Shown: positions 1 through 30,300 of the stretch, piece after piece
How the letters are laid out: each line of letters begins with the position of its first letter
Position numbering within the stretch: the stretch's first letter is position 1
Translations under genes and position numbers: made by a program
Notes under the pieces: model-generated
What the model was told of the DNA's origin: nothing
Databases searched by the model: none
The model's input: only the letters and a program-made list of their open reading frames with translations
Assembly (NCBI GenBank): GCA_964202905.1
Contig: CAXNJO010000001.1
Location: 704,001-768,000 of the forward strand
Length of the DNA stretch: 64,000 nt
Direction: 5' to 3'
Origin: Polyangiales bacterium
GTDB taxonomy: Bacteria > Myxococcota_A > Polyangia > Polyangiales > JADJQN01

Positions 1-3000
1 CGGGCATCGGGCAGACGCGTCTGATCACGGCGAACAACGTGAAGAGCCTCACGGTCTCGCCTGCGTGGACGACGACGCCGAGCACGACCAGCGGCTATGC
101 GATCTATCCGAACAACACGCTCAACGACACGACTCCAAGCTGGTCCGGCACCATCACCGGCGCGCGCGTGCGTATCCGGAGTGGCACGGGTGCCGGGCAG
201 GAGAGCACGGTCACGGCCAACACGGCGACCCAGCTCACCGTGTCGCCGGCATGGACGACCCCACCGAACGCGACGAGCGTCTACGAGGTGATCGCGGCCT
301 CGGAGCTTAACAAACTCTACGACACCACCAAGACGTGGGCGGTCAACCAGTTCACGACGTTCACCTATGTCGTGCGGATCACCGGTGGTCGCGGTTCGGG
401 GCAGTCGGCCACGGTGACCGCCAACTCCGCCAACGTCCTGACCGTCTCGCCCGCGTGGCCGATCCTCCCGGATACGACCAGCACCTACGAGATCGCCGAG
501 GCGCTCTTCAACGACAAGCTCTATGACCTGACTCCGAGCTGGACGGGCAGCGTCGGCGGCGCGCGCGTGCGCATCCTGAGCGGCACCGGGGCGGGCCAGG
601 AGCGCAACATCACGGCAAGCGCTGCGACTCGCCTCACCGTCTCGCTCGCTTGGACGACCCTCCCGGACGCGACGAGCGTCTACGAGGTGATCGCGGCGGC
701 CGATCTCAACAAGCTCTACGACACGACGCGCAGCTGGACGCTCAATCAGTTCATGGGCTTCACCGTCACCATCACCGGCGGTCGTGGTGCCGGCCAATTC
801 GCCGCCGTCTCCTCGAACACGGCGACCGTGCTCACGGTCGCGGCCGCGTGGGCGACCCTGCCGGACGCGACGAGCACGTACGACATCCGCGAGGCGGCCT
901 TCAACACGCGGCTCTACGACACGACCACGCCCGGTTGGACGGGGACCGTGACGGGCTCGACGGTGTTCATCACCTCGGGAACGGGGGCCGGCCAGAACCG
1001 CGTGATCTCGTCCAACACGCCGACGGTGTTGAACGTCACCCCCGCTTGGGTGACGCAGCCGGACGCGACGAGCAACTACGAGGTCGTCGCCGCCGCGGAC
1101 GTCGTCCGCCTCTACGACACGACGAAGAGTTGGGTGGTCAACCAGTTCATGACTGGCTATGTGGTGAACATCCTCTCGGGTGCAGGCGTGGGCCAGATCC
1201 GCGCGATCTCGAGCAACACCGCGAACGTCCTCACGGTCTCGGCGTGCGTGGGGCGACGATGCCCAACAACACGAGCACCTACGAGATCCGCGAGACGGTC
1301 AGCAACGACAAACTCTACGACACCTCGCCGAGCTGGGCGCCGGCGGACGTGCTCACGGGTCGGACGATCTTCCTGACCTCGGGCATCGGGCTCGGGCCAG
1401 TCGCGCGTCATCAGCGCGAACAACGCGAACAAGATCACCGTCTCGCCGGCGTGGGGCACGCTGCCGGATGCGACGACCGGGTACGCGATCGTCGCAGCGG
1501 CCGACCTCGCCAAGATGTACGTGCCCGTGCGTCCGTGGACGCCGGGCCAGTTCGTCGGCTTCACGCTCACCCTCACGGGCGGACCCGGCGCGGGGCAGTC
1601 GCGCCCGATCACGGCCAACTCGACGACGGACGTCACCGTCATGTCGGCTTGGATGACGCTGCCCGACGCCACGACGACCTACGAGATCCGTGAGACGGTC
1701 ATCAACAACCAGCTCTACGACATGACGCCTGCGTGGGCGGGAAGCGTGAACGGCTACACGCTGTTCCTCACGGCGGGCACGGGCGCCAGCCAGACCCGGA
1801 CGGTGACGGCGACGGCGCCGACGCGGCTCACCGTGAGCAGCCCGTGGGCCACGCAGCCCGATGCGACGACGCAGTACCGCCTGGTCGCGCCGGCGGTCTT
1901 CACGACGGTCACGGACACGACCAAGTCGTGGATCATGAACGAGTTCGCGACGGCGTTCACCTTCCGCATCGTCTCCGGCACGGGCGTTGGTCAGACGAGC
2001 GTGATCACCAGCAACACGAGCAACTCGCTGACGCTCGCGACGGCGCTGACGACGCTCCCGGACGCCACGACCGTCTACGAGATCCGCGAAACCGTCATCA
2101 ACGACAAGCTCTACGACACGACGCCGAGCTGGTCGGGGAGCGTGGTGGGCTCGACGGTGTTGCTGACGGGCGGGACGGGCGCGGGCCAGCTCCGCACGAT
2201 CTCTGCGAACACGACGACGAAGCTGACGGTGTCGGCGGTTTGGACGACGAACCCGGACGCGACGACGCAGTACGAGGTCATCCCGGCTGCGGAGCTGACG
2301 AAGCTCTACGACACGTCCAAGTCGTGGGCGATGAACCAGTTCACGCCCGGGTACATCGTGAGCATCCTGACGGGCGCGGGCGCGGGCCAGACGCGCAACG
2401 TCGTGTCGAACACGAACAACGTCGTCACGGTGGATGCGCCGTGGATGACGCTGCCGAACACGACGAGCACGTACGAGATCCGCGAAGCGGTGATCAACAA
2501 CAAGCTGTACGACGCGACGGTGCCGGGCTGGGTGACGGGCCTCGCGCTGAATGGCTCGACGGTGCTCCTGACGGGCGGCAGGGGCGCGGGCCAGTCGAAT
2601 ACGATCATGGCGAACACGGCGACGAAGCTGACGCTCAACAGCGCGTGGGCGCCGGAGCCGGATGCGACGACGACGTACGAGGTCGTGGCGCCGGCGGAGT
2701 TCACGAAGCTCTACGACACGACGAAGAGTTGGGTGGTCAACCAGTTCATGACTGGCTATGTGGTGAACATCCTGACGGGCGCGGGTGCGGGCCAGACGCG
2801 CCCCATCGTGTCGAACACGAACAACGTGCTGACGGTGTCTGCGCCGTGGTCACCGCTGCCGAACGCGACGAGCACGTACGTGATCCGCGAAGCGGTCACG
2901 AACGACAAGCTCTTCGACACGACGGTGCCGAGCTGGGCGCCTGCGGCCGCGTGCTGAACGGGCTCGACGGTGTTCATCACGGCAGGGCACGGGCGCGGGC

Positions 3001-6000
3001 CAGTCGCAGCACGATCACGGCGAACACGGCGACGCGCCTCACGGTCAACAGCGCGTGGGGCACGCAGCCGGACGGGACGAGCCAGTACGAGATCGTCGCG
3101 GCGGGCGAGTTCACGAAGCTGTACGACACGACGCGTTCGTGGACGCCCGGCCAGTTCGCGGGCTTCACGGTGACGATTATTGGGGGCGCGGGCGCGGGCC
3201 AGGTTCGCCCGGTGACGGGGAACGGCGCGACGGACCTGACGGTGTCTGGGGCGTGGATGACGCTGCCGAACAGCACGAGCACGTACGAGATCCGCGAGAC
3301 GGTGATCAACGACAAGCTCTACGACACCACAGTGCCGGCGTGGTCGGGGGTCGTGAGTGGGTTGACGCTGGTGCTGACGGGCGGGACGGGCGCGGGTCAG
3401 ATCCGCACGATCTCTGCGAACACGGCGACGAAGCTGACGGTGTCGGCGGTGTGGACGACGCAGCCGGACGCGACGACGCAGTACCTGGTTTTCGCGGGCA
3501 CGGAGCTGAGCCGTCTGTACGACACGACCAAGAGCTGGGTCGTGGGCGAGTTCATGGGCTTTGAGCTGAGCATCACGGCGGGTCCGGGAGCCGGTCAGAC
3601 GCGGACGGTGTCTTCGAACACGTTGAATTCGCTCACGATCTCGGCGCCGTGGATGACACTGCCCAGCACGGCGAGCACTTATGTGCTGCGTGAGGTGGTG
3701 GTCAACAACAAGCTCTACGACACGACGGTGCCTGCGTGGTCGGGGAGCGTGATGGGCTCGACGGTGTTGCTGACGGGCGGGACGGGCGCGGGCCAGCTCC
3801 GCACGATCTCGACGAACACGGCGACGAAGCTGACGGTGTCGGCGGTGTGGACGACGAACCCGGACGCGACGACGCAGTACGAGGTCATCCCGGCGGCGGA
3901 GCTGACGAAGCTCTACGACACGACCAAGTCGTGGGCGATGAACCAGTTCACGCCCGGGTACATCGTGAGCATCCTGACGGGCGCGGGCGCGGGCCAGACG
4001 CGCAACGTCGTGTCGAACACGAACAACGTCGTCACGGTGGATGCGCCGTGGATGACGCTGCCGAACACGACGAGCACGTACGAGATCCGCGAAGCGGTGA
4101 TCAACAACAAGCTGTACGACGCGACGGTGCCGGGCTGGGTGACGGGCCTCGCGCTGAATGGCTCGACGGTGCTCCTGACGGGCGGCAGGGGCGCGGGCCA
4201 GTCGAATACGATCATGGCGAACACGGCGACGAAGCTGACGCTCAACAGCGCGTGGGCCGCCGGAGCCGGATGCGACGACGACGTACGAGGTCGTGGCGCC
4301 GGCGGAGTTCACGAAGCTCTACGACACGACGAAGAGTTGGGTGGTCAACCAGTTCATGACTGGCTATGTGGTGAACATCCTGACGGGCGCGGGTGCGGGC
4401 CAGACGCGCCCCATCGTGTCGAACACGAACAACGTGCTGACGGTGTCTGCGCCGTGGTCACCGCTGCCGAACGCGACGAGCACGTACGTGATCCGCGAAG
4501 CGGTCGTGAGCGACAAGCTGTTCGACACGACGGTGCCGGGCTGGGTAACGGGCCCCGCGTTGAACGGCTCGACGGTGTTCATCACGGCAGGGACGGGCGC
4601 GGGTCAGTCGCGCACGATCACGGCGAACACGGCGACGCGCCTCACGGTCAACAGCGCGTGGGGCACGCAGCCGGACGGGACGAGCCAGTACGAGATCGTC
4701 GCGGCGGGCGAGTTCACGAAGCTGTACGACACGACGCGTTCGTGGACGCCCGGCCAGTTCGCGGGCTTCACGGTGACGATTATTGGGGGCGCGGGCGCGG
4801 GCCAGGTTCGCCCGGTGACGGGGAACGGCGCGACGGACCTGACGGTGTCTGGGGCGTGGATGACGCTGCCGAACAGCACGAGCACGTACGAGATCCGCGA
4901 GACGGTGATCAACGACAAGCTCTACGACACCACAGTGCCGGCGTGGTCGGGGGTCGTGAGTGGGTTGACGCTGGTGCTGACGGGCGGGACGGGCGCGGGT
5001 CAGATCCGCACGATCTCTGACGAACACGGCGACGAAGCTGACGGTGTCGGCGGTGTGGACGACGCAGCCGGACGCGACGACGCAGTATGTGGTCCTCGCC
5101 AGCACCGAGCTGAGCCGTCTCTACGACACGACCAAGAGCTGGGTCGTGGGCGAGTTCATGGGCTTTGAGCTGAGCATCACGGCGGGTCCGGGAGCCGGTC
5201 AGACGCGGACGGTGTCTTCGAACACGTTGAATTCGCTCACGATCTCGGCGCCGTGGATGACACTGCCCAGCACGGCGAGCACTTATGTGCTGCGTGAGGT
5301 GGTGGTCAACAACAAGCTCTACGACACGACGGTGCCTGCGTGGTCGGGGAGCGTGATGGGCTCGACGGTGTTGCTGACGGGCGGGACGGGCGCGGGCCAG
5401 CTCCGCACGATCTCTGACGAACACGGCGACGAAGCTGACGGTGTCGGCGGTTTGGACGACGAACCCGGACGCGACGACGCAGTACGAGGTCATCCCGGCT
5501 GCGGAGCTGACGAAGCTCTACGACACGACCAAGTCGTGGGCGATGAACCAGTTCACGCCCGGGTACATCGTGAGCATCCTGACGGGCGCGGGCGCGGGCC
5601 AGACGCGCAACGTCGTGTCGAACACGAACAACGTCGTCACGGTGGATGCGCCGTGGATGACGCTGCCGAACACGACGAGCACGTACGAGATCCGCGAAGC
5701 GGTGATCAACAACAAGCTGTACGACGCGACGGTGCCGGGCTGGGTGACGGGCCTCGCGCTGAATGGCTCGACGGTGCTCCTGACGGGCGGCAGGGGCGCG
5801 GGCCAGTCGAATACGATCATGGCGAACACGGCGACGAAGCTGACGCTCAACAGCGCGTGGGCCATCGAGCCGGACGCGACGACGACGTACGAGGTCGTGG
5901 CGCCGGCGGAGTTCACGAAGCTCTACGACACGACGAAGAGTTGGGTGGTCAACCAGTTCATGACTGGCTATGTGGTGAACATCCTGACGGGCGCGGGTGC

Positions 6001-9000
6001 GGGCCAGACGCGCCCCATCGTGTCGAACACGAACAACGTGCTGACGGTGTCTGCGCCGTGGTCACCGCTGCCGAACGCGACGAGCACGTACGTGATCCGC
6101 GAAGCGGTCGTGAGCGACAAGCTGTTCGACACGACGGTGCCGGGCTGGGTAACGGGCCCCGCGTTGAACGGCTCGACGGTGTTCATCACGGCAGGGACGG
6201 GCGCGGGTCAGTCGCGCACGATCACGGCGAACACGGCGACGCGCCTCACGGTCAACAGCGCGTGGGGCACGCAGCCGGACGGGACGAGCCAGTACGAGAT
6301 CGTCGCGGCGGGCGAGTTCACGAAGCTGTACGACACGACGCGTTCGTGGACGCCCGGCCAGTTCGCGGGCTTCACGGTGACGATTATTGGGGGCGCGGGC
6401 GCGGGCCAGGTTCGCCCGGTGACGGGGAACGGCGCGACGGACCTGACGGTGTCTGGGGCGTGGATGACGCTGCCGAACAGCACGAGCACGTACGAGATCC
6501 GCGAGACGGTGATCAACGACAAGCTCTACGACACCACAGTGCCGGCGTGGTCGGGGGTCGTGAGTGGGTTGACGCTGGTGCTGACGGGCGGGACGGGCGC
6601 GGGTCAGATCCGCACGATCTCTGACGAACACGGCGACGAAGCTGACGGTGTCGGCGGTGTGGACGACGCAGCCGGACGCGACGACGCAGTACCTGGTCCT
6701 CGCCAGCACCGAGCTGAGCCGTCTCTACGACACGACCAAGAGCTGGGTCGTGGGCGAGTTCATGGGCTTTGAGCTGAGCATCACGGCGGGTCCGGGAGCC
6801 GGTCAGACGCGGACGGTGTCTTCGAACACGTTGAATTCGCTCACGATCTCGGCGCCGTGGATGACACTGCCCAGCACGGCGAGCACTTATGTGCTGCGTG
6901 AGGTGGTGGTCAACAACAAGCTCTACGACACGACGGTGCCTGCGTGGTCGGGGAGCGTGGCGGGTTCGACGGTGTTGCTGACGGGCGGGACGGGCGCGGG
7001 CCAGCTCCGCACGATCTCTGACGAACACGGCGACGAAGCTGACGGTGTCGGCGGTGTGGACGACGAACCCGGACGCGACGACGCAGTACGAGGTCATCCC
7101 GGCTGCGGAGCTGACGAAGCTCTACGACACGACCAAGTCGTGGGCGATGAACCAGTTCACGCCCGGGTACATCGTGAGCATCCTGACGGGCGCGGGCGCG
7201 GGCCAGACGCGCAACGTCGTGTCGAACACGAACAACGTCGTCACGGTGGATGCGCCGTGGATGACGCTGCCGAACACGACGAGCACGTACGAGATCCGCG
7301 AAGCGGTGATCAACAACAAGCTGTACGACGCGACGGTGCCGGGCTGGGTGACGGGCCTCGCGCTGAATGGCTCGACGGTGCTCCTGACGGGCGGCAGGGG
7401 CGCGGGCCAGTCGAATACGATCATGGCGAACACGGCGACGAAGCTGACGCTCAACAGCGCGTGGGCCATCGAGCCGGACGCGACGACGACGTACGAGGTC
7501 GTGGCGCCGGCGGAGTTCACGAAGCTCTACGACACGACGAAGAGTTGGGTGGTCAACCAGTTCATGACTGGCTATGTGGTGAACATCCTGACGGGCGCGG
7601 GTGCGGGCCAGACGCGCCCCATCGTGTCGAACACGAACAACGTGCTGACGGTGTCTGCGCCGTGGTCACCGCTGCCGAACGCGACGAGCACGTACGAGAT
7701 CCGCGAGACCGTCGTGAGCGACAAGCTCTACGACACGACAGCGCCGAGCTGGGTAATGGGCACCGCGTCGTACGGCTCGACCGTGTTCATCACCGCGGGG
7801 ACGGGCGCGGGGCAGTCGCGCGTCGATCACGGCGAACACCGCGACCCGCCTGACGCTCGCCTCGAGCTGGGTGACGCTGCCCGACGCGACGAGCCAGTAC
7901 CGGATCGCCGGGGCCGCCGATGTGCTGCGCCTCCTCGATGCGGGCGCGGGATGGACGGTGGATCGGTTCGTCGGATACACGGTCGAGATCCTCTCCGGCG
8001 CGGGCGCGGGTCAGACGCGCGTGATCAGCTCGAACACCGTCGACGTCCTCACGGTCACCACCGCCTGGACGACGCTGCCGGACGCGACGAGCAACTACCA
8101 GATCCGCGAGACCAACCTCGCCGACAAGCTCTTCGACACGACGAAGAGCTGGACGACGAACGTCTACGCGGGCACGACGGTCACCATCACGGGCGGGACG
8201 GGCGTCGGCCAGGTCCGCACGGTGGTGAGCAACACGAACAACCGCCTCACCGTCACGCCCGCGTGGGCCACGCTGCCCGGCGCGACGACCACGTACCGGG
8301 TCGGGACTGGCGCCGTCGGCGAGCTCAACAAGCTCTACGACTTCACGCAGGCGTGGGTCCCCGGGAGCCTCGTGGGCTTCACGGTCCGGATCACCGGCGG
8401 TCTCGGCTCGGGTCAGACCCGCACGATCTCCGCCAACGACGCGACCAGCGTCACCGTCTCGGTGAACTGGGTCACCGTGCCGAACACGACGAGCACGTAT
8501 GAGATCACGGGTCTCAACAACGTGCTCTACGACCTCGACCTCCCGACGCCCTGGGCGACCAACCAGTTCGCCGGTTACAAACTCTTCATCAGCTCGGGGC
8601 GCGGCGCGGGTCAGACGCGCACGGTCTCCGGCAACGCCGCGCGCACCCTCACCGTCTCGGCGGCGTGGGCGACGATCCCCGACACCACGAGCGTCTACCA
8701 GCTCTCGAACGAGGACTACTACACCCCGTACTTCGCGGGTGGCCACGTGCCTCCGACCTACACGCAGACCGTGGCCGCGCTGAACGCGCGCGGCATCAAG
8801 GTCATCGTCGTCGATTCGAGCGGCGGCTACGCCCCCGCGCTCCGAGACGCGCGGGAGATCGCCACGGCGACCGGCGCCCTCGGGCCGACGGGCGCGCCGC
8901 TCGTCTACAGCATCAGCCCCTCCGGAACGGGTCTCGGGACGGCGGTCGCGAGCGCGGTCGCCGACCTCGCGAGCTACTCGCGTCTGGACATCACCGCGCG

Positions 9001-9649
9001 CGCCAACGACAACCCGGCGACGCCGTTCGACGAGCGCACGCTCGTGGCGTCGATCCTCGCGGTGGCGGGCTCGTACGCGCCCGGTCGCTGCACGGGGATC
9101 ACCGGCGGCGTGCAGTTCAACCAGTGCCTGCCGGGCACCGGCGTGACCTTCCAGGTCAACTTCACGGGCGTCGTCATGCCGACCAGCGTGCCGCAGCGCT
9201 TCGATTTCACGATCGACACGCTCGGCAACGGCAGCCAGATCATATCGACGACGCCCGTCACGATCATCATCCCGCCGACCTCGCCCGCGTATCCGCCCAG
9301 CGGCACGTACACGCGCGACTTCGACGCCACGATGCGCTGCGCCGGCACGGAGGTTCCGCGCTGGGGCAACCTGTCGTGGACGGCGACGCTCCCCACGGGC
9401 ACCAGCATCTCCTGGACGCTGCGCTCGGCGACGACGACGGCGGCCCTCGCCGCGGCGACGCCGGTGACCTTCTCGACGCCGACCTTGAGCAGCCCGCAGA
9501 ACGCCGGCAGCCAGCTGATCGCCGGCGGGGTTCCCGCGACCCTGCCCCACATGCGCGTGACCGCGACGCTGAACTCCAACGCGGCGCGCAGCGCGGCGCC
9601 GACCCTCTCGAGCTTCAACCTGCTCTACGACTGCGTGGCGGGCGAGTAG
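1..9649 (+). CDS. Giant Thr-rich repetitive surface protein/adhesin (5' end outside window; multiple frameshifts) with C-terminal vWA-like half-domain, Ig-like domain and Cys-bracketed terminal domain
   Basis: ORFs 39-1376, 1515-2957, part of 1733-5020, 4293-5168, 5044-, 5441-6772, 6648-, 7045-8502 and 7871-9649 all encode the same ~66-aa unit (KLYDTTxxWxxNQFxGxxVxIxxGxGAGQxRxIxxNTxxxLTVxxAWxTxPDxTSxYEI) in changing frames. The unique C-terminus starts at ~8710 and ends with TAG at 9649. Confidence 0.85.
2100..7740 (+). repeat. Near-identical intragenic tandem repeat, ~1602-bp unit, ~3.5 copies
   Basis: Anchor GGTCGGGGAGCGTG recurs at 2131, 3738, 5342 and 6946. The 1604-bp spacings each include two +1 insertions, giving a 1602-bp (534-aa) unit. 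Confidence 0.9.
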
Positions 9650-9665: not shown

Positions 9666-11042
9666 ATGAGCGAGACCGCCACGTACACCGCGCGGCCCCG
9701 GGCGCCCGGACCCTCCGGGCGCTACGGGCTGCGCAACGTCGCGCGGTTCGTGCGCGACCCGCTCTCGTTCCTGCGCGGGCTCTCGACGCGGTACGGCGAC
9801 GTCGTGCAGCTGAAGCTGCTCGGCAAGCCGTACTTCGTGCTCAGCCACCCGGACGACATCGAGGCGGTCCTCGTGCAGCACGCGCGCTCGATGGGGCGCG
9901 ACGAGTACGTCGAGGTGCTCAAGAACGCGCTCGGGCTCGGACTGCTCACGAGCGACGGCGAGCTCTGGAAGCGGCAGCGCAAGCTGATGTCGCAGGCCTT
10001 CGCGCCGCGCCGCATCGCGGCGTACGCCGACGCGATGGCGCGCGTCACGGACGCGGGGCTCACGCGCTGGCGGGATGGCGCGGTCGTGAACCTCCACGCG
10101 GAGATGTCGCGGCTCACGATGGAGGTCGTCGCCGAGGTGCTCTTCGGCGCGGGACTTCGGGCCGACGACGTCGCGCTCGTCGGGCACGCGATGGAGGAGG
10201 TCAACGCCTTCTTCGCGAACAGCCCCGAGGCGCTGTTGAAGATCCCCACGCGCGTGCCGACGCCGCGCAACCGCCGCTTCGTGAAGGCCGTCGCGGCGCT
10301 CGACACGCTGCTCTTCCGCATCCTCGCCGAGCGCCGCGCCGGGCCCGCGCGCGACGACCTGCTCGGCACGCTGCTCGCCGCGCAGGACGACGACGGCGCG
10401 CGCATGAGCGATCAGCAGCTGCGCGACGAGGCGATCACGCTCTTTCTCGCGGGGCACGAGACGACGGCGCTCGCGCTCGCGCACACGCTCTACCTCCTCG
10501 CGCGGCACCCCGAGATCGAGAAGAAACTCCACGCCGAGCTGCGCGCGGTGCTCGGCGATCGCCTGCCGACGGCCGCGGACGTGCGCGCGCTGCCCTACAC
10601 GGAGTGCGTGCTCAAGGAGGCGATGCGCCTCTATCCGCCCGCGTGGACGACGGGGCGCGAGGTGCTCGAGCCGATCGAGGTGCGCGGCGTGTCCATGCCG
10701 AAGGGCGCGCAGATCTTCTTGAGTCAGTGGGTCGTACACCACGATGCGCGATGGTTTCCGGATCCGGAGCGCTTCGACCCCGAGCGCTTCACACCCGAGC
10801 GCGCGAAGGCGCTGCCGCGCTACGCGTACTTCCCCTTCGGCGGCGGGCCGCGCATCTGCATCGGCAATCATTTCGCGATGATGGAGGCGACGCTGATGCT
10901 CGCGCTCATCGTCGGGCGCTGGCAGCTCGCGCTCGAGCCCGGACAGAAGCTCGAGCTCGCGCCTTCGGTGACGCTGCGGCAGCGCGGGCCGGGCCTGCGC
11001 GTGCGGCTGCGTTCGCGTCCGCGTGAGAGCGTGTCGGCATGA
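9666..11042 (+). CDS. Cytochrome P450
   Basis: I-helix AGHETT, K-helix EAMR (ExxR), PERF motif, heme-binding FGGGPRICIG. Confidence 0.97.
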   Translation: MSETATYTARPRAPGPSGRYGLRNVARFVRDPLSFLRGLSTRYGDVVQLKLLGKPYFVLSHPDDIEAVLVQHARSMGRDEYVEVLKNALGLGLLTSDGELWKRQRKLMSQAFAPRRIAAYADAMARVTDAGLTRWRDGAVVNLHAEMSRLTMEVVAEVLFGAGLRADDVALVGHAMEEVNAFFANSPEALLKIPTRVPTPRNRRFVKAVAALDTLLFRILAERRAGPARDDLLGTLLAAQDDDGARMSDQQLRDEAITLFLAGHETTALALAHTLYLLARHPEIEKKLHAELRAVLGDRLPTAADVRALPYTECVLKEAMRLYPPAWTTGREVLEPIEVRGVSMPKGAQIFLSQWVVHHDARWFPDPERFDPERFTPERAKALPRYAYFPFGGGPRICIGNHFAMMEATLMLALIVGRWQLALEPGQKLELAPSVTLRQRGPGLRVRLRSRPRESVSA

Positions 11043-12472
11043 CCCGCGCCGCGAGCCCCGCGGCCGTCGAGCGTGCCTTGATCGAGATGGACGCTGCGTT
11101 GCCGAGCGGCGCGGTGCTGCGCGACGCCGACGTGCTCGCCGCGTACGCGCACGACGAGAGCGAGACGACGCCGTGCACGCCGGACGCCGTCGTGCGTGCG
11201 GGGAGCACGGCGGAGGTCGCGGCGGTGCTGCGCGCCGCGCACGCGCACGGCGTCCCCGTCACGCCGCGTGCGGGCGGCACGGGCCGTGTCGGCGGCGCGG
11301 TGCCGGTCGCGGGCGGGATCGTGCTCAGCGTCGAGCGCATGCGCGACGTGAAGGGCGTCGAGCGCGACGAGCTGCTCGCGGTCGCGGGGCCGGGCGTGGT
11401 GTTGCAGACGCTCCACGAGACGGTCGAGCGCGAGGGGCTCTTCTATCCGCCGGACCCCTCGTCGCTCGCCTCGTGTCGGCTCGGCGGCAACGTCGCGGCC
11501 AACGCGGGCGGGCCGCGCGCCTTCAAATACGGCACGACGCGCGACTTCGTGCTCGGCCTGGAGGCCGTCACCGCGGACGGCACCGTGCTCCAGCTCGGGC
11601 GCCGCACGCGCAAGGGCGTGACGGGCTACGACCTCACCGGGCTCGTCGTCGGCAGCGAGGGCACGCTCGCCGTTGTCACCGAGGTCACGCTGCGTCTCGT
11701 GCCGCTGCCCGAGCGTGTCGCGACGCTGCTCGTGCTCCTGCGCGACGTGCACGCCGCCGCGCGCGCGGTGAGCGCGATCGTGGCGCGGCGCGTGGTTCCG
11801 CGCTGCCTCGAGCTGCTCGACGCGGCGACGCTCGAGATCCTGCGCCCGGCGACCTCGCTGCCGCTCGATCCGCGCGCGGGGGCGCTGCTCCTCGTCGAGC
11901 TCGACGGCGGCGACGCGACGCTCGACGCCGAGCTCGCCACGATCTCGGCCGCGCTCGACGATCTTGGCGTGCTCGACGTGCTCGTCGCGAAGAGCGAGGC
12001 CGACCGCGCGCGGCTCTGGGCAGCGCGCCGCGACCTCAGCTACGCGACGCGCCGCATGGCCCGCTTCAAGCTCAGCGAGGACATCGTCGTGCCGCGCACG
12101 CGGCTGCCCGCGCTGCTCGAGGCCGTCGCGCAGATCGCCGAGCGCGAGCGGCTGCGCATGCCGGCCTATGGCCACGCGGGCGACGGCAACCTGCACGTCG
12201 CGCTGCTCTGGGACGCGCCCGAGGATCGGCCGCGCGTCGACCGCGCGATCGAGTCGCTGTTCCGCGCGACGGTCGCGCTCGGCGGCACGCTGAGCGGCGA
12301 GCACGGGATCGGCGTGCTGAAGGCGCCGTACCTCGGCCTCGAGCAGAGCGACGCGCTCATCGCGTTGCAGGAGCGGGTGAAGGCGACCTTCGACCCGCGC
12401 GGGATCCTCAACCCGGGCAAGGTCTTCCCCGCGCAGGCGGCGCGCTTCCCGCACACGCACGGCGGCTGCTGA
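11039..12472 (+). CDS. FAD-linked oxidase, GlcD / D-2-hydroxyacid dehydrogenase family
   Basis: PRAGGTG, YPPDPSS, GGNVAANAGG, GSEGTL, GHAGDGNLH, SGEHGIG and DPRGILNPGK motifs; start overlaps the P450 stop. Confidence 0.93.
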   Translation: MTRAASPAAVERALIEMDAALPSGAVLRDADVLAAYAHDESETTPCTPDAVVRAGSTAEVAAVLRAAHAHGVPVTPRAGGTGRVGGAVPVAGGIVLSVERMRDVKGVERDELLAVAGPGVVLQTLHETVEREGLFYPPDPSSLASCRLGGNVAANAGGPRAFKYGTTRDFVLGLEAVTADGTVLQLGRRTRKGVTGYDLTGLVVGSEGTLAVVTEVTLRLVPLPERVATLLVLLRDVHAAARAVSAIVARRVVPRCLELLDAATLEILRPATSLPLDPRAGALLLVELDGGDATLDAELATISAALDDLGVLDVLVAKSEADRARLWAARRDLSYATRRMARFKLSEDIVVPRTRLPALLEAVAQIAERERLRMPAYGHAGDGNLHVALLWDAPEDRPRVDRAIESLFRATVALGGTLSGEHGIGVLKAPYLGLEQSDALIALQERVKATFDPRGILNPGKVFPAQAARFPHTHGGC

Positions 12473-15562: not shown

Positions 15563-15577
15563 GCGGCCTCGCCGCCT

Positions 15578-15803
15578 GCGCGTGAAACACGGTGTCGCCC
15601 GCGCGTGAAACACCGTGTCCCCCACGCGTGAAACACGGTGTCGCCTGCGCGTGAAACACCGTGTCGCCCGCGCGTGAAACATCGTGTCGCCCGCGCGTGA
15701 AACATCGTGTCGCCGCGGCGTGAAACACGGTGTCGCGGCGGCGTGACACGCGCTGCCGTGGTGGCGTGAAACGGGTGTCGCGGGGTCGTGAAACGCGGTG
15801 TCC
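15578..15803. repeat. Intergenic tandem array of ~10 x 23-bp units (GCGCGTGAAACACGGTGTCGCCC)
   Basis: Units start at 15578, 15601, 15624, 15647, 15670, 15693, 15716, 15739, 15762 and ~15784 and degenerate towards the right; no spacers. Confidence 0.92.
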
Positions 15804-23979: not shown

Positions 23980-24150
23980 CTCGCGGCGCGCGAATGGCAT
24001 GCTCACAATGCGTGACTGGCACGCTCACGGCGCGTGAAAAGCGCGCTCACGGCGCGCGAATGGCATGCTCACGGCGCGTGACTGGCACGCTCACGGCGCG
24101 TGAAAAGCGCGCTCACGGCGCGCGAATGGCATGCTCACCGCGCGTGAATC
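23980..24150. repeat. Intergenic tandem array of ~8 x 22-bp units with 66-bp (A-B-C) higher-order period
   Basis: A = CTCACGGCGCGCGAATGGCATG, B = CTCACGGCGCGTGACTGGCACG, C = CTCACGGCGCGTGAAAAGCGCG; order A B C A B C A plus a partial unit. Confidence 0.92.
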
Positions 24151-27329: not shown

Positions 27330-30300
27330 TCAGGCGCGGCGGCGCGCCGCGCGGCGGCGGAGGGCGAGCGCGAGCAGGCCGAGCGCGGCGAGCGCGGCGC
27401 CGCCTGCACCGGGCGAAGCGCCGTGTCCGGCCGCGCGGCAGGAGCAGCCCTCGGCGGTGCCGTCGACGGGCGGGACCGGGGTGCCCGCCTCGTCGCCGAG
27501 GTCCGCGCCGCCGAGATCCGCGCGACCGGCGTCCGCGCCCGCGTCGGTGTCTGCGCCCGCGTCGGTGTCGACGCCCGCGTCGGTGTCTGCGCCCGCGTCG
27601 GTGTCCGCGCCCGCGTCGGTGTCCGTGCCTGCGTCGAGTGTCGGCGCCCGCGTCGGGGTCGCTGCCCGCGTCCGGCACGCCCGCGTCCGGCACGCCCGCG
27701 TCCGGCATCGGGCGCGGCTCGCACGCGCTCACCGTGAGGTCGCAGCGGCGGTCGGCGGCGCAGTCCACGTCGTCCGTGCAACCGCAGAGGCCGTTGCCGA
27801 GGCAGGCCGCGCCGCGCCCGCCCGCGTCGCAGCGGCCGAGGTCGGTGGGTGCGCACTCGGCGCACGTGTTGCCCGCGCCCACGCAGGCCACGCGGCCATC
27901 CACGCGCCCGGCGCACGCGCCGTCGTCGCGGCACTCGGCGCAGACGCCGGCCGCGCCCGCGGACACGCAGAAGGGCTGCGCGGCGGAGCGGGCCGCGCAG
28001 GCCGCGTCGTTCTCGCACGTGGTGGTGCAGACGCCCACGGTCACCGCGTCGGGCGAGGTGCAGAACAGCGCCGCGGGGCAGCCGTGGCGCTCCGCGCCGA
28101 AGCAGCCGTCGATGCAGCGCCCCGTGGAGGCGTCGCAGATCCGGCCGCTCGTGGCGTCGCCGCACTCGGCGTCGGTCGCGCAGCCGCAGAAGGTGGCCGT
28201 GACGCGCGTGCGGCAGCCGACGCCATCGGCCGCGCCCGCGCAGAGCGCGTCGCCGCCGTTGTCGGCGGTGCCGTCGCAGTCGTCGTCCACGCCGTTGCAG
28301 GACTCGGGCACCGGCGCACCGGGCACGGCGCTGCACGCGGTCGCGGCGCCGTCGCCCGTGCAGACGCGCGTGCCGGACGCGAGGCACGCGCCGACGCCCG
28401 CCTCGCAGACCGCGCCGAGGTCGGCGAAGTCCTCGTCCACCACGCCGTCGCAGTCGTCGTCGAGCGTGTTGCAGCGCTCGGTCGTCGGCGAAACTTCACC
28501 ATCACAGAAGAGGGTCCCTGCGCGGCAGGCGCGCACGCCACGCTGGCAGATGCCGGTGTCGAGGCCGCAGGCGCCGCCCGTGTCGCTCAGATCGTCGTCG
28601 ATGGTGCCGTTGCAGTCGTCGTCCGCGCCGTTGCAGACCTCGGGTGTCGGTCCGACGCTGCTGCCGCAGATCAGCGCGCCAGCGACGCATTCGGTGGTCC
28701 CGAGGGTGCACGCCCCGGTCTCAGTGCCGCACGGGATGCCCGCGTCGGTGGACGCGTCGTCGACGGCGCCGTCGCAGTCGTCGTCGGCGCCGTTGCAGAG
28801 CTCGGTCGTGGGCGCGATCTCGCCATCGCAGACGACCGCGCCCGTGCGGCAGACACGGACACCGCCCTGGCAGGCGCCGGTGTCGGTGCCGCAGCTGCCG
28901 CCGACGTCCGTGGGCGCGTCGTCGACGGCGCCGTCGCAGTCGTCGTCGTCGCCGTTGCAGACTTCGGTCGTCGGGCCAGTGGCGCCGGTGCAGACGAGCG
29001 CGCCGCCGACGCAGGCGTTTGTGCCGGTGGCGCAGGCGCCGGTGTCGGTGCCGCAGGAGCCGCCCGCGTCGGTGGGCGCGTCGTCGACGGTGCCGTCGCA
29101 GTCGTCGTCGGCGCCGTTGCAGAACTCGGTCGTCGGCGCGGTGTCACCCTCGCAGGAGATGGTGCCGCCAAGGCACACGCGCACGCCCGTGGTGCAGGCG
29201 CCGATGTCGGAGCCGCAGGTGCCGCCTGCGTCGCTGGGCGCGTCGTCGACGGTGCCGTCGCAGTCGTCGTCGAGGCCGTTGCAGAGCTCGGCCGTGGCGA
29301 GAGAGGTGTTCGTGCAGCGGTTGTCGAGACCGCAGGTGTCGGCGGTGCAGGTGTTGCCGTCGTTGCAGTCGGCGTCGACGTTGCAGCAGCCCGCGATGGG
29401 CGCGTTCGCGCAGGTGCCGGAGGGCTCGGTGCACGCGTCCGCTGTGCAGACGTCGCCGTCGTCACACGACACGGCGGTGCCTGCGGTGCACACGCCCGTG
29501 AGGCACGTCTCCGCCCCGTTGCACGCGGTGCCGTCGGCGCACGCGGTGCCGTTCGCGACGACGCCGTCGGCGGGGCAAGCCGCCGCGCTGCCGGTGCACG
29601 ACTCGGCGACGTCGCACGCGCCGCTCGCGACGCGGCATTCGGTGCCTGCGGCGACGAAGGCGTCGGCCGGGCACGTCTTCGCGACGCCGTCGCACGACTC
29701 GGCGACGTCGCAGATCCCCGCGACCGCGCGGCAAACGCTGGTCGGGCCCGCGACGCGATCCACGCACACGCCCGCTCCGTCGCAGGTGTCGGGCGCATCG
29801 CAGAGGCCGCTCGTCGCGGCGCCGCACGTCGTCCCGACCGCGGGCAGCGCGCACGCCGCGTCGCAGCCGCACGCCGTCGTGCCGTTCGTGGCGCCGTCGT
29901 CGCACGTCTCACCGTCGTCGAGCGTTCCGTCGCCGCAGCGGTTGAAGGTCGAGCGCAGCACGAGGTCGTCGAGCGCGAGCTCGTCGCGGTTCCCCGTGCT
30001 GCCCGGCACGTCGTCCGTCGACCAGCGCAGGAAGAGGAACTGGCCCGCAGGGACGGCCGCGGGGAGCGTCACGCGCCGCGTGACAGACGACGAAGCCGAG
30101 CGCGTCCGCCGCGGCGCCCGACGCGTAGCTCGCGGCCGGGACGGGCGTGAAGGTCGTGCCGTCGGCGGACCACGCGAGATCGAGCGCCGTCGCCACGGCG
30201 TTGTCGTTGCGGGCCCAGATCGTGTACGAGAGGTCGGCGCTGACGAGCCGCCCGCCGGTCGTGTTCTGCAGGCGGAGGGTCAGCGTGCCAGGCGTCAGGT

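Follow-up and report, generated by a model that had tools for sequence, protein, structure and literature searches.

The window analysed here is a stretch of 64,000 nucleotides from a Polyangiales bacterium (contig CAXNJO010000001.1; G000:C1:704001-768000 in the coordinates used below). Its beginning holds most of a giant lipoprotein gene, whose reading frame opens about 2.8 kb upstream, at C1:701177. The protein of about 4,154 residues is built on an integrin-beta-like von Willebrand factor type A (vWA) domain, and the loop after the TDAPFH motif of this domain is extended to about 3,456 residues. Probably this is a single gene encoding 45 separate strands and 45 strand-less barrel bodies within one vWA loop, mirror-paired into a nested rod of 45 barrels.

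The split integrin-beta-like domain

The first-pass annotation of the window described repeats running straight into second-half vWA motifs. It predicted that the half bearing MIDAS, the metal-ion-dependent site of adhesion, should lie upstream, and suggested looking for DxTxSM and TDA motifs before the first repeat. The second-half motifs are located at 8750 (PPTY), 8789-8812, 8846-8878, 8897-8914 and 8930-8971 of the window. The predicted half is present upstream in the same frame, with DTTGSM, NDLPES and TDAPFH at the positions listed in Table 1. Judging by these motifs, the vWA domain is split by the insert and both halves belong to the same protein. A loop insertion of more than 2,900 residues had been proposed; the actual insert exceeds this estimate because a motif arm of 440 residues precedes the repeats upstream of the window.

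The MIDAS motifs of the giant protein are intact (D250-x-T-x-S, NDLPE, TD397). Integrin beta chains are matched by a 16-row profile of the family (best E-value 1e-8 among the 60 rows shown); the beta-1 match spans profile positions 33-256 (E 2e-7), and TDAPFH aligns with the equivalent motif of beta-6. The first, narrower vWA profile reached integrin beta-1 at an E-value of about 1 only. The flanks of the vWA domain are conserved in homologues and may form a hybrid-like beta-sandwich, the PDB matches being restricted to profile positions 33-256. The loop carrying the insert is presumably the one that faces the propeller of the alpha subunit in animal integrins.

The protein starts with a lipoprotein-type signal, a hydrophobic stretch ending in LTAC19 (the pattern was read by eye), and thus the MYXO-CTERM signal, whose absence had been noted, is not needed. 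The Cys-rich N-terminal region matches TSP_3 with an E-value of 0.048, below the cut-off. The Cys-bracketed domain that ends the protein, already recognised in the first pass, is conserved in the family and has no match in Pfam or NCBIfam; six vWA homologues likewise gave no relevant match in NCBIfam. Among 301 genomes of the order, 218 have a match to the C-terminal part, a count that includes G000 itself and the unpublished genome G122.

By these sequence features the host protein is an integrin-beta-like lipoprotein resembling CglD of Myxococcus xanthus, a protein described as a beta-integrin-like outer-membrane lipoprotein (10.1101/2023.10.19.562135). Both are Cys-rich lipoproteins with a beta-I-type vWA domain and MIDAS, and the spacing between the first and the last MIDAS aspartates is 143 in CglD and 147 in the giant protein. 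However, CglD has twelve DxDxDG motifs in a COMP-like array, whereas the giant protein has two only, and for this reason it is termed a CglD-like relative and not CglD. The words "insertion" and "hybrid" were not found in the main text of that paper.

Other paralogues in G000 also exceed the giant protein in the number of DxDxDG repeats. The contigs C1-C4 contain ten further matches to the vWA N-half, and the six that were checked have short loops. Many of these paralogues have long arrays of DxDxDG. Three of the matches stand in tandem on C3, and the one on C1 looks frameshifted. A further gene, L248 (G000:C3:197766-199844), shares its Cys-rich N-terminus with the giant gene (E 4e-14) but has a propeller-like middle part; its C-terminus is similar by eye, with no blastp match.

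Loop lengths were compared in 40 proteins from 40 regions, a non-random set picked as top matches and long frames; the loop is measurable in 32 of them. Its length is 16-30 residues in 10 homologues, 148-193 in 18 and 283-329 in 3, and in the last one, L076, the loop is short and the insert sits further along. Repeat-free homologues, which the first-pass annotation had proposed to look for, include the ten cargo-free ones with loops of 16-30 residues. Since the vWA halves are joined by a short loop in these homologues, the array is a loop insertion. Domain-sized cargo occupies the same loop in 21 of the 32 homologues, and in both PPC-like cases scanned (L052, L066) Pfam identified it as PPC. 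Of the eight proteins lacking a measurable loop, seven have their inserts elsewhere in this vWA domain, in loops that follow the first helix or separate the PE motif from TDA (L061, L073, L074, L077, L079, L080, L084); PA14 and PPC were identified in the three of these that were scanned. The bacterial integrin-beta-like domain looks like a platform for cargo, with three or more loops that can be used.

Some of the cargo is unusual in its own right. The 290-residue cargo of L066 (G118:C136) appears by eye to be a PPC domain within a PPC domain, so that nesting recurs with a different domain. L081 and L082 have a 152-residue cargo unlike PPC in the vWA loop, with no Pfam match in L081; L081 also encodes a second, ordinary vWA domain further on.

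Two matched arms and the predicted nested rod

The insert of the giant protein consists of two arms (Table 1). Exactly 45 xxGTATxxxx motifs, with a mean period of 9.8 residues, lie between TDAPFHNGPP and the first body. The returning arm comprises 45 units of about 66 residues. The earlier count of about 43 holds for the window, where 43 whole units follow the tail of u2, and two units start upstream. The repeat positions described as near-invariant are also borne out: across the 22 of 45 units that were aligned, W, G, G, P and Y do not vary. Tandem Repeats Finder scores the region 2076-7845 at 5224. Bodies u2-u45 have no GTAT motif and are connected by linkers of mostly 8 residues. In contrast, ordinary copies of the barrel open with G-T-A-T about 10 residues before LxD (668 instances), and by this comparison of sequences the GTAT motif is the normal first strand of the barrel. 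In a coupling analysis of 628 ordinary domains, strand-1 positions are linked both with strand 2 and with the last strand (z is 9.3 for T8-T19, 6.1 for G10-T16 and 3.8 for T6-T69).

The two arms share their periodicities. Identity peaks at a lag of eight units in both (0.77 and 0.85, vs about 0.62-0.72 at lags 1-7), and near-identical blocks cover s9-s32 (three 8-motif blocks) and u13-u40. There is also an alternation with period two: 17 of 22 even strands but none of 22 odd ones reach at least 10 residues and carry Tyr or Phe at position 8, and the linkers of odd bodies differ from those of even ones. The tip body u1 is the most divergent, with a mean DNA identity of 59%, and contains six arginines, the most of 23 units counted (1-4 in the others); as far as sequence can tell, both features fit a binding tip. 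Most bodies are near-neutral in charge. At the tip, linker length does not track strand length.

In the proposed rod, strand k would pair with body 46-k, each barrel being nested in the first hairpin of the preceding one. The chain would exit the vWA loop as one long strand, turn at the complete tip barrel and, on its way back, wrap a barrel around each strand segment. The insert would thus have both of its ends at the vWA loop, so that the domain could still close. The first-pass annotation had offered a loop insertion as an alternative to a stalk. The loop insertion stands, but the choice was a false one, as the insert is predicted to be a stalk with both ends at the loop. With an extended outgoing arm (9.8 residues per level, about 3.3 Å each) the rod could be up to about 145 nm long. 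Folding would start at the tip and move to the base, and the vWA domain would be the last part to close. A surface stalk is likely, in which the divergent tip barrel would be held away from the cell and the MIDAS site would stay near the membrane. By analogy, barrels along the rod may bind sugars.

Complex prediction supports the binding of strands to bodies. Bodies u2-u4 with free strands s42-s44, the strands supplied without alignment, scored 0.61, whereas the best of three controls scored 0.00. The score mark is reached by 116 of 157 solved pairs and 2 of 215 mismatched ones, a calibration roughly applicable here. The runs agree in at least 96% of contacts, with the partner at a predicted local distance difference test score (pLDDT) of at least 87. 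Predicted contacts join s44 to residues 58-61 of u2, and s43 to residues 67-68 and 120-121 of u3. In the best contacts, s44 lines up antiparallel with u2's last strand and s43 sits on u3, which is the mirror order.

For the barrel itself, alignments A2-A4, A6, A7 and A9 were discarded: in most, rows had slid by one unit or unrelated residues covered the strand arm, and A7 was too shallow. Because these alignments were unusable, the tip that was folded is that of the homologue L228 and not of the window gene. The AlphaFold2 model of this two-level tip (84 rows) is all-beta, with a pLDDT of 97.6 and a predicted template modelling score (pTM) of 0.86. Its outer motif is an ordered strand despite only 3-5 covering rows.

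The best fold matches of this model are phage baseplate chains as large as hub proteins, namely 8gtc_P 165-241 (Z 8.2, root-mean-square deviation (rmsd) 2.1 Å over 72 residues), 8vjh_D (Z 7.5) and 8rk3_g (Z 7.1), followed by tailspike inserts and elongation-factor barrels; a Z of about 8 is modest. In the model, the barrel resembles a phage hub domain of the sugar-binding type. Phage_BR0599 (PF09356) scores 21.1 bits with four units and 19.2 with a complete homologous domain, below the gathering threshold of 22.9. An atlas match to Phage_BR0599 (0.78), a lead only, agrees with the fold matches. The HABAS/SBHM fold was not recognised among the 50 matches listed, and the NCBIfam and PHROGs searches returned nothing useful. 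Sequence matches of the repeats in PDB were confined to RACK1-type ones to one unit (best E 0.003) and were rejected as chance, and the top Foldseek matches in PDB by E-value (a depolymerase, rmsd 11 Å) were rejected because of poor superposition.

Matched numbers of strands and bodies recur in other barrel proteins. Searches with the tip produced 371 and 2,273 relatives; 255 were retrieved, and a fixed counting rule was applied to 254 proteins. Strands and bodies are equal in number in 12 of the 20 tight arrays; of 605 isolated bodies taken as a control, 26 have at least two motifs upstream. Arrays with linkers of 9-11 residues (P0161, P0172, P0218, P0222, P0235, P0249) were left out of the count both ways. 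A series of small lipoproteins from genomes titled Gemmatimonadetes and Acidobacteria has ratios of 3:3 (L226), 4:4 (L227) and 9:9 (L228, with a second array of 2:2 counted by eye); the near-identical L226 and L227 are one strand and one body apart. These three are related and count as one lineage, while P0145, P0164, P0168 and P0184/P0254 are different hosts. The barrel is present in none of the 40 vWA homologues, and vWA halves in none of the 254 barrel-bearing proteins.

Such a rod would change its length by equal numbers of units added to both arms, which may happen through two matched duplications or through a single double crossover by which a longer inner segment replaces the existing one. 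It is an even call whether these proteins form a distinct repeat-protein class. Its members would be telescoping self-insertion rods of 2 to 45 levels, portable into loops of unrelated hosts without breaking them, and lengthened in both arms equally by a double-crossover swap of the inner doll. Here the rod would be an integrin-beta-like arm of about 145 nm encoded next to a propeller-like lipoprotein gene.

A different arrangement, which we regard as quite improbable, is that the bodies fold alone as an ordinary tandem array, the GTAT region being a low-complexity spacer or a beta-solenoid and the insert a floppy loop. Bodies given unrelated partners in place of their strands kept a pLDDT of 78-84 and may partly fold alone. 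Linkers are of 8 residues, vs 4-6 in several other nested arrays. The matrix of similarities leaves the order unfixed: for the mirror order the correlation r is 0.42 at the required offset and at best 0.49, at +1, and the direct order also reaches 0.49, at an offset of +7. These points weigh against the nested rod, as do several others. The evidence for pairing is wholly prediction, covering 3 of 45 levels in the giant protein, and AlphaFold2 failed to model the whole of P0138 from an alignment of 8 rows, with a pLDDT of 38. The recent duplication comprises 24 strands but 28 bodies. The counting rule was missed in 8 of the 20 arrays, namely five seemingly partial sequences, two arrays at 3:2, and P0145, which is 8:8 by eye, the script having overlooked its end bodies; two of the rule-matching proteins are near-duplicates of others. 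On the other hand, autonomous folding of the bodies is opposed by the exact 45:45 count, the matched counts in unrelated proteins, the joint gain of a strand and a body, the coupling of strand 1 into the barrel, and the mirror contacts in the predicted complex. Moreover, a spacer of 440 residues would reach the vWA loop only by running alongside the array.

Another possibility, which we consider unlikely, accepts the nested rod and denies the adhesin: the vWA domain would no longer close or bind, and would anchor a rod that acts as a spacer, a capsule-like coat or a scaffold. The adhesive role and the sugar binding are proposed by analogy; the insert leaves the loop right after the aspartate of the TDA motif, and the near-neutral charge of most bodies is spacer-like. 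However, the metal-site motifs are intact, both halves of the domain are 50-61% identical to a cargo-free homologue of the same genus, and domain-sized cargo is common in this very loop.

Several observations concern the barrel outside the giant protein. In P0004, P0005, P0008, P0009 and P0015 it appears by eye to be nested in two further loops, one following the LxD motif and one preceding the last strand, with three or four levels at most. The barrel is common on phage contigs (347 matches), and one phage-associated family (L146-L225, P0013-type) consists of proteins of about 860-970 residues with 6-7 barrel copies, mostly without precomputed Pfam domains. It occurs in 5 of 400 genomes of the order (1-2 copies) and in 16 of 400 in the phylum, and was not found in the family's three remaining genomes, which are 80-94% complete; scanning genomes with the tip likewise gave no relative.

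Integrity of the gene

The repeats described in the first pass are present in the assembly, but not as one open reading frame. The array contains eight net +1 frameshifts and one compensating pair (Table 1). All net shifts are in or at the edge of near-identical blocks. Four of the sites read as unions of two sister alleles, which, we infer, is what consensus polishing would be expected to produce in repeats. The extra bases are missing from read contigs at 2948, 2950, 2957 and 2984 (runs X2, X5), 3010 (X5), 5018 (X2), and 6622 and 1388 (X1), and a contig of run X3 is 10 bases shorter across 7684-8080. In total, the read contigs address five of the eight net shifts, one of them by inference. 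Around the tip and the end of u2, a contig of X2 covers L001 7514-8213 with no differences. The depth of the X1 unitig over the block is 17.8, vs about 5.8 for single-copy sequence, which supports three copies of the block. The best read set may derive from the source sample, and parts of the gene that no reads cover were not taken as evidence. No RNA data set was listed as containing the gene.

The frameshifts themselves, and the fact that no read contig spans the gene, would also be expected of a decaying pseudogene or an over-assembled repeat whose 45-level product is never made. Three of the eight net shifts have no read row shown, though for each of them the assembly contains a sister copy in frame, and X1 is the weaker witness, having single-base gaps that X2 lacks. 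This explanation is nevertheless very improbable, given the confinement of the net shifts to near-identical blocks or their edge, the sister-allele unions, the bases missing from X1, X2 and X5, and the unitig depth. A 45:45 match would, moreover, be hard to obtain by mis-assembly. The frameshifts are likely assembly errors, and a single lipoprotein gene of about 4,150 residues is likely intact.

Known systems and the surrounding locus

Recursive insertion of domains is already known. In the Si3 region of cyanobacterial RNA polymerase, HABAS/SBHM domains are recursively inserted (PMC11515920, PMC13114784). The six-level nesting of Si3 is the example of extreme complexity offered by a survey from 2026 that covers 2.7 million classified domains (PMC13114784). 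As in Si3, copies of one small beta domain would be inserted in one another inside a loop of a host protein; an A1-B1-C-B2-A2 nesting of like domains is predicted for the giant protein. Si3, however, has six levels, branches and belongs to an enzyme, whereas the giant protein would have about 45 unbranched levels, with the same hairpin split each time, in a surface protein, and its best fold matches are a different barrel. What appears to be new is the predicted depth of about 45 levels, in a cellular surface protein and inside an integrin-like domain.

A stalk formed by distant parts of one chain is also known. In streptococcal antigen I/II, two repeat regions that are distant in sequence associate to form a stalk, by which the middle of the chain is held out from the cell (PMC3178794). 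That stalk consists of an alpha-helix and a polyproline helix (Ala-rich and Pro-rich repeats), whereas the giant protein is modelled as all-beta, strand-complemented barrels, and its stalk would grow from a loop of the adhesion domain. Thus it would work like antigen I/II without being a member of that family.

[quoted passage not shown] The corresponding region of the RcGTA hub was named oligosaccharide-binding by similarity to a sugar-binding tailspike insert (PMC7296036). The hub domain is a single copy and is 7-12% identical to the barrel, and the hub protein has iron-sulphur cysteines, whereas no cysteine is present in 22 aligned units of the array. The barrel fold itself is known, but searches turned up no solved complex with such strand-barrel pairing. 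An unbranched strand-complemented rod of this kind was not found described in the open literature, subscription papers lying outside that search.

The nested rod would explain how a loop of 3,450 residues is accommodated without breaking the host. It would also mean that some low-complexity Thr/Gly tracts store strands for domains that lie thousands of residues further downstream, and both domain annotation and structure prediction will overlook this. The natural series of 2, 3, 4, 8, 9 and 45 levels may be useful for studies of the order of folding, of mechanical strength and of repeat expansion coordinated between two sites. The design may also offer a scaffold for rods whose two ends lie at the same pole.

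Table 1. Features of the giant gene and its locus (window positions unless G000:C1 or residue numbers are given)
Feature	Position	Strand	Remarks
Propeller-like and Cys-rich lipoprotein genes	G000:C1:698323-701042	+	upstream of window; co-oriented
Gene start, lipoprotein-type signal ending LTAC19, Cys-rich region, two DxDxDG (residues 42, 194)	G000:C1:701177-701905	+	upstream of window
Likely N-terminal strands of hybrid-like beta-sandwich	residues 216-243	+	upstream of window; putative
N-half of integrin beta-I-like vWA: DTTGSM (D250), DDYP (289), NDLPES (346), TDAPFHNGPP (396-405)	G000:C1:701906-702391	+	upstream of window
Outgoing arm, 45 xxGTATxxxx motifs (s1-s45)	G000:C1:702392-703711	+	upstream of window
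Tip, s45 joined directly to u1	from G000:C1:703682	+	just upstream of window; sole complete barrel
End of body u2	1..107	+	
Returning arm, bodies u3-u45, 62-69 residues each	108..8716	+	without strand 1; two alternating subtypes
Frame-breaking sites near 1245/1388 (compensating pair), 2924-2984, 3010, 4257, 5018, 5415, 6622, 7019, 7823	1245..7823	+	
Recently amplified bodies u13-u40	2097..7715	+	8-unit block (about 1,604 bp), about 3.5 near-identical copies
vWA C-half (PPTYTQTVAAL to ASAVADLA)	8750..8971	+	
Likely C-terminal part of hybrid-like beta-sandwich	8972..9277	+	conserved in homologues; putative fold
Cys-bracketed C-terminal domain and stop codon	9278..9649	+	conserved in family
FAD-linked oxidase gene	11039..12472	+	marker of conserved locus

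The propeller-like, Cys-rich and FAD oxidase genes are matched in six of seven related loci. In the seventh, from the same genus, a propeller-like gene is directly upstream and the vWA loop has 16 residues. The propeller-like lipoprotein gene of G000 is at G000:C1:698323-699888 (L001 2323-3888), and its fold is a lead only (atlas 0.80-0.87). It is possible that this lipoprotein and the beta-I-like protein form an alpha/beta-like pair.

Further upstream, at G000:C1:677409-686519, two adjacent and apparently paralogous genes encode large lipoprotein-like proteins (about 1,500 and 1,390 residues) with HExGH-type motifs. The window contains other tandem repeats: about ten 23-bp units at 15573-15802, eight 22-bp units at 23980-24149, and units of 162 and 96 bp at 28443-29733, the latter region resembling repeats of a Cys-rich protein on the minus strand.

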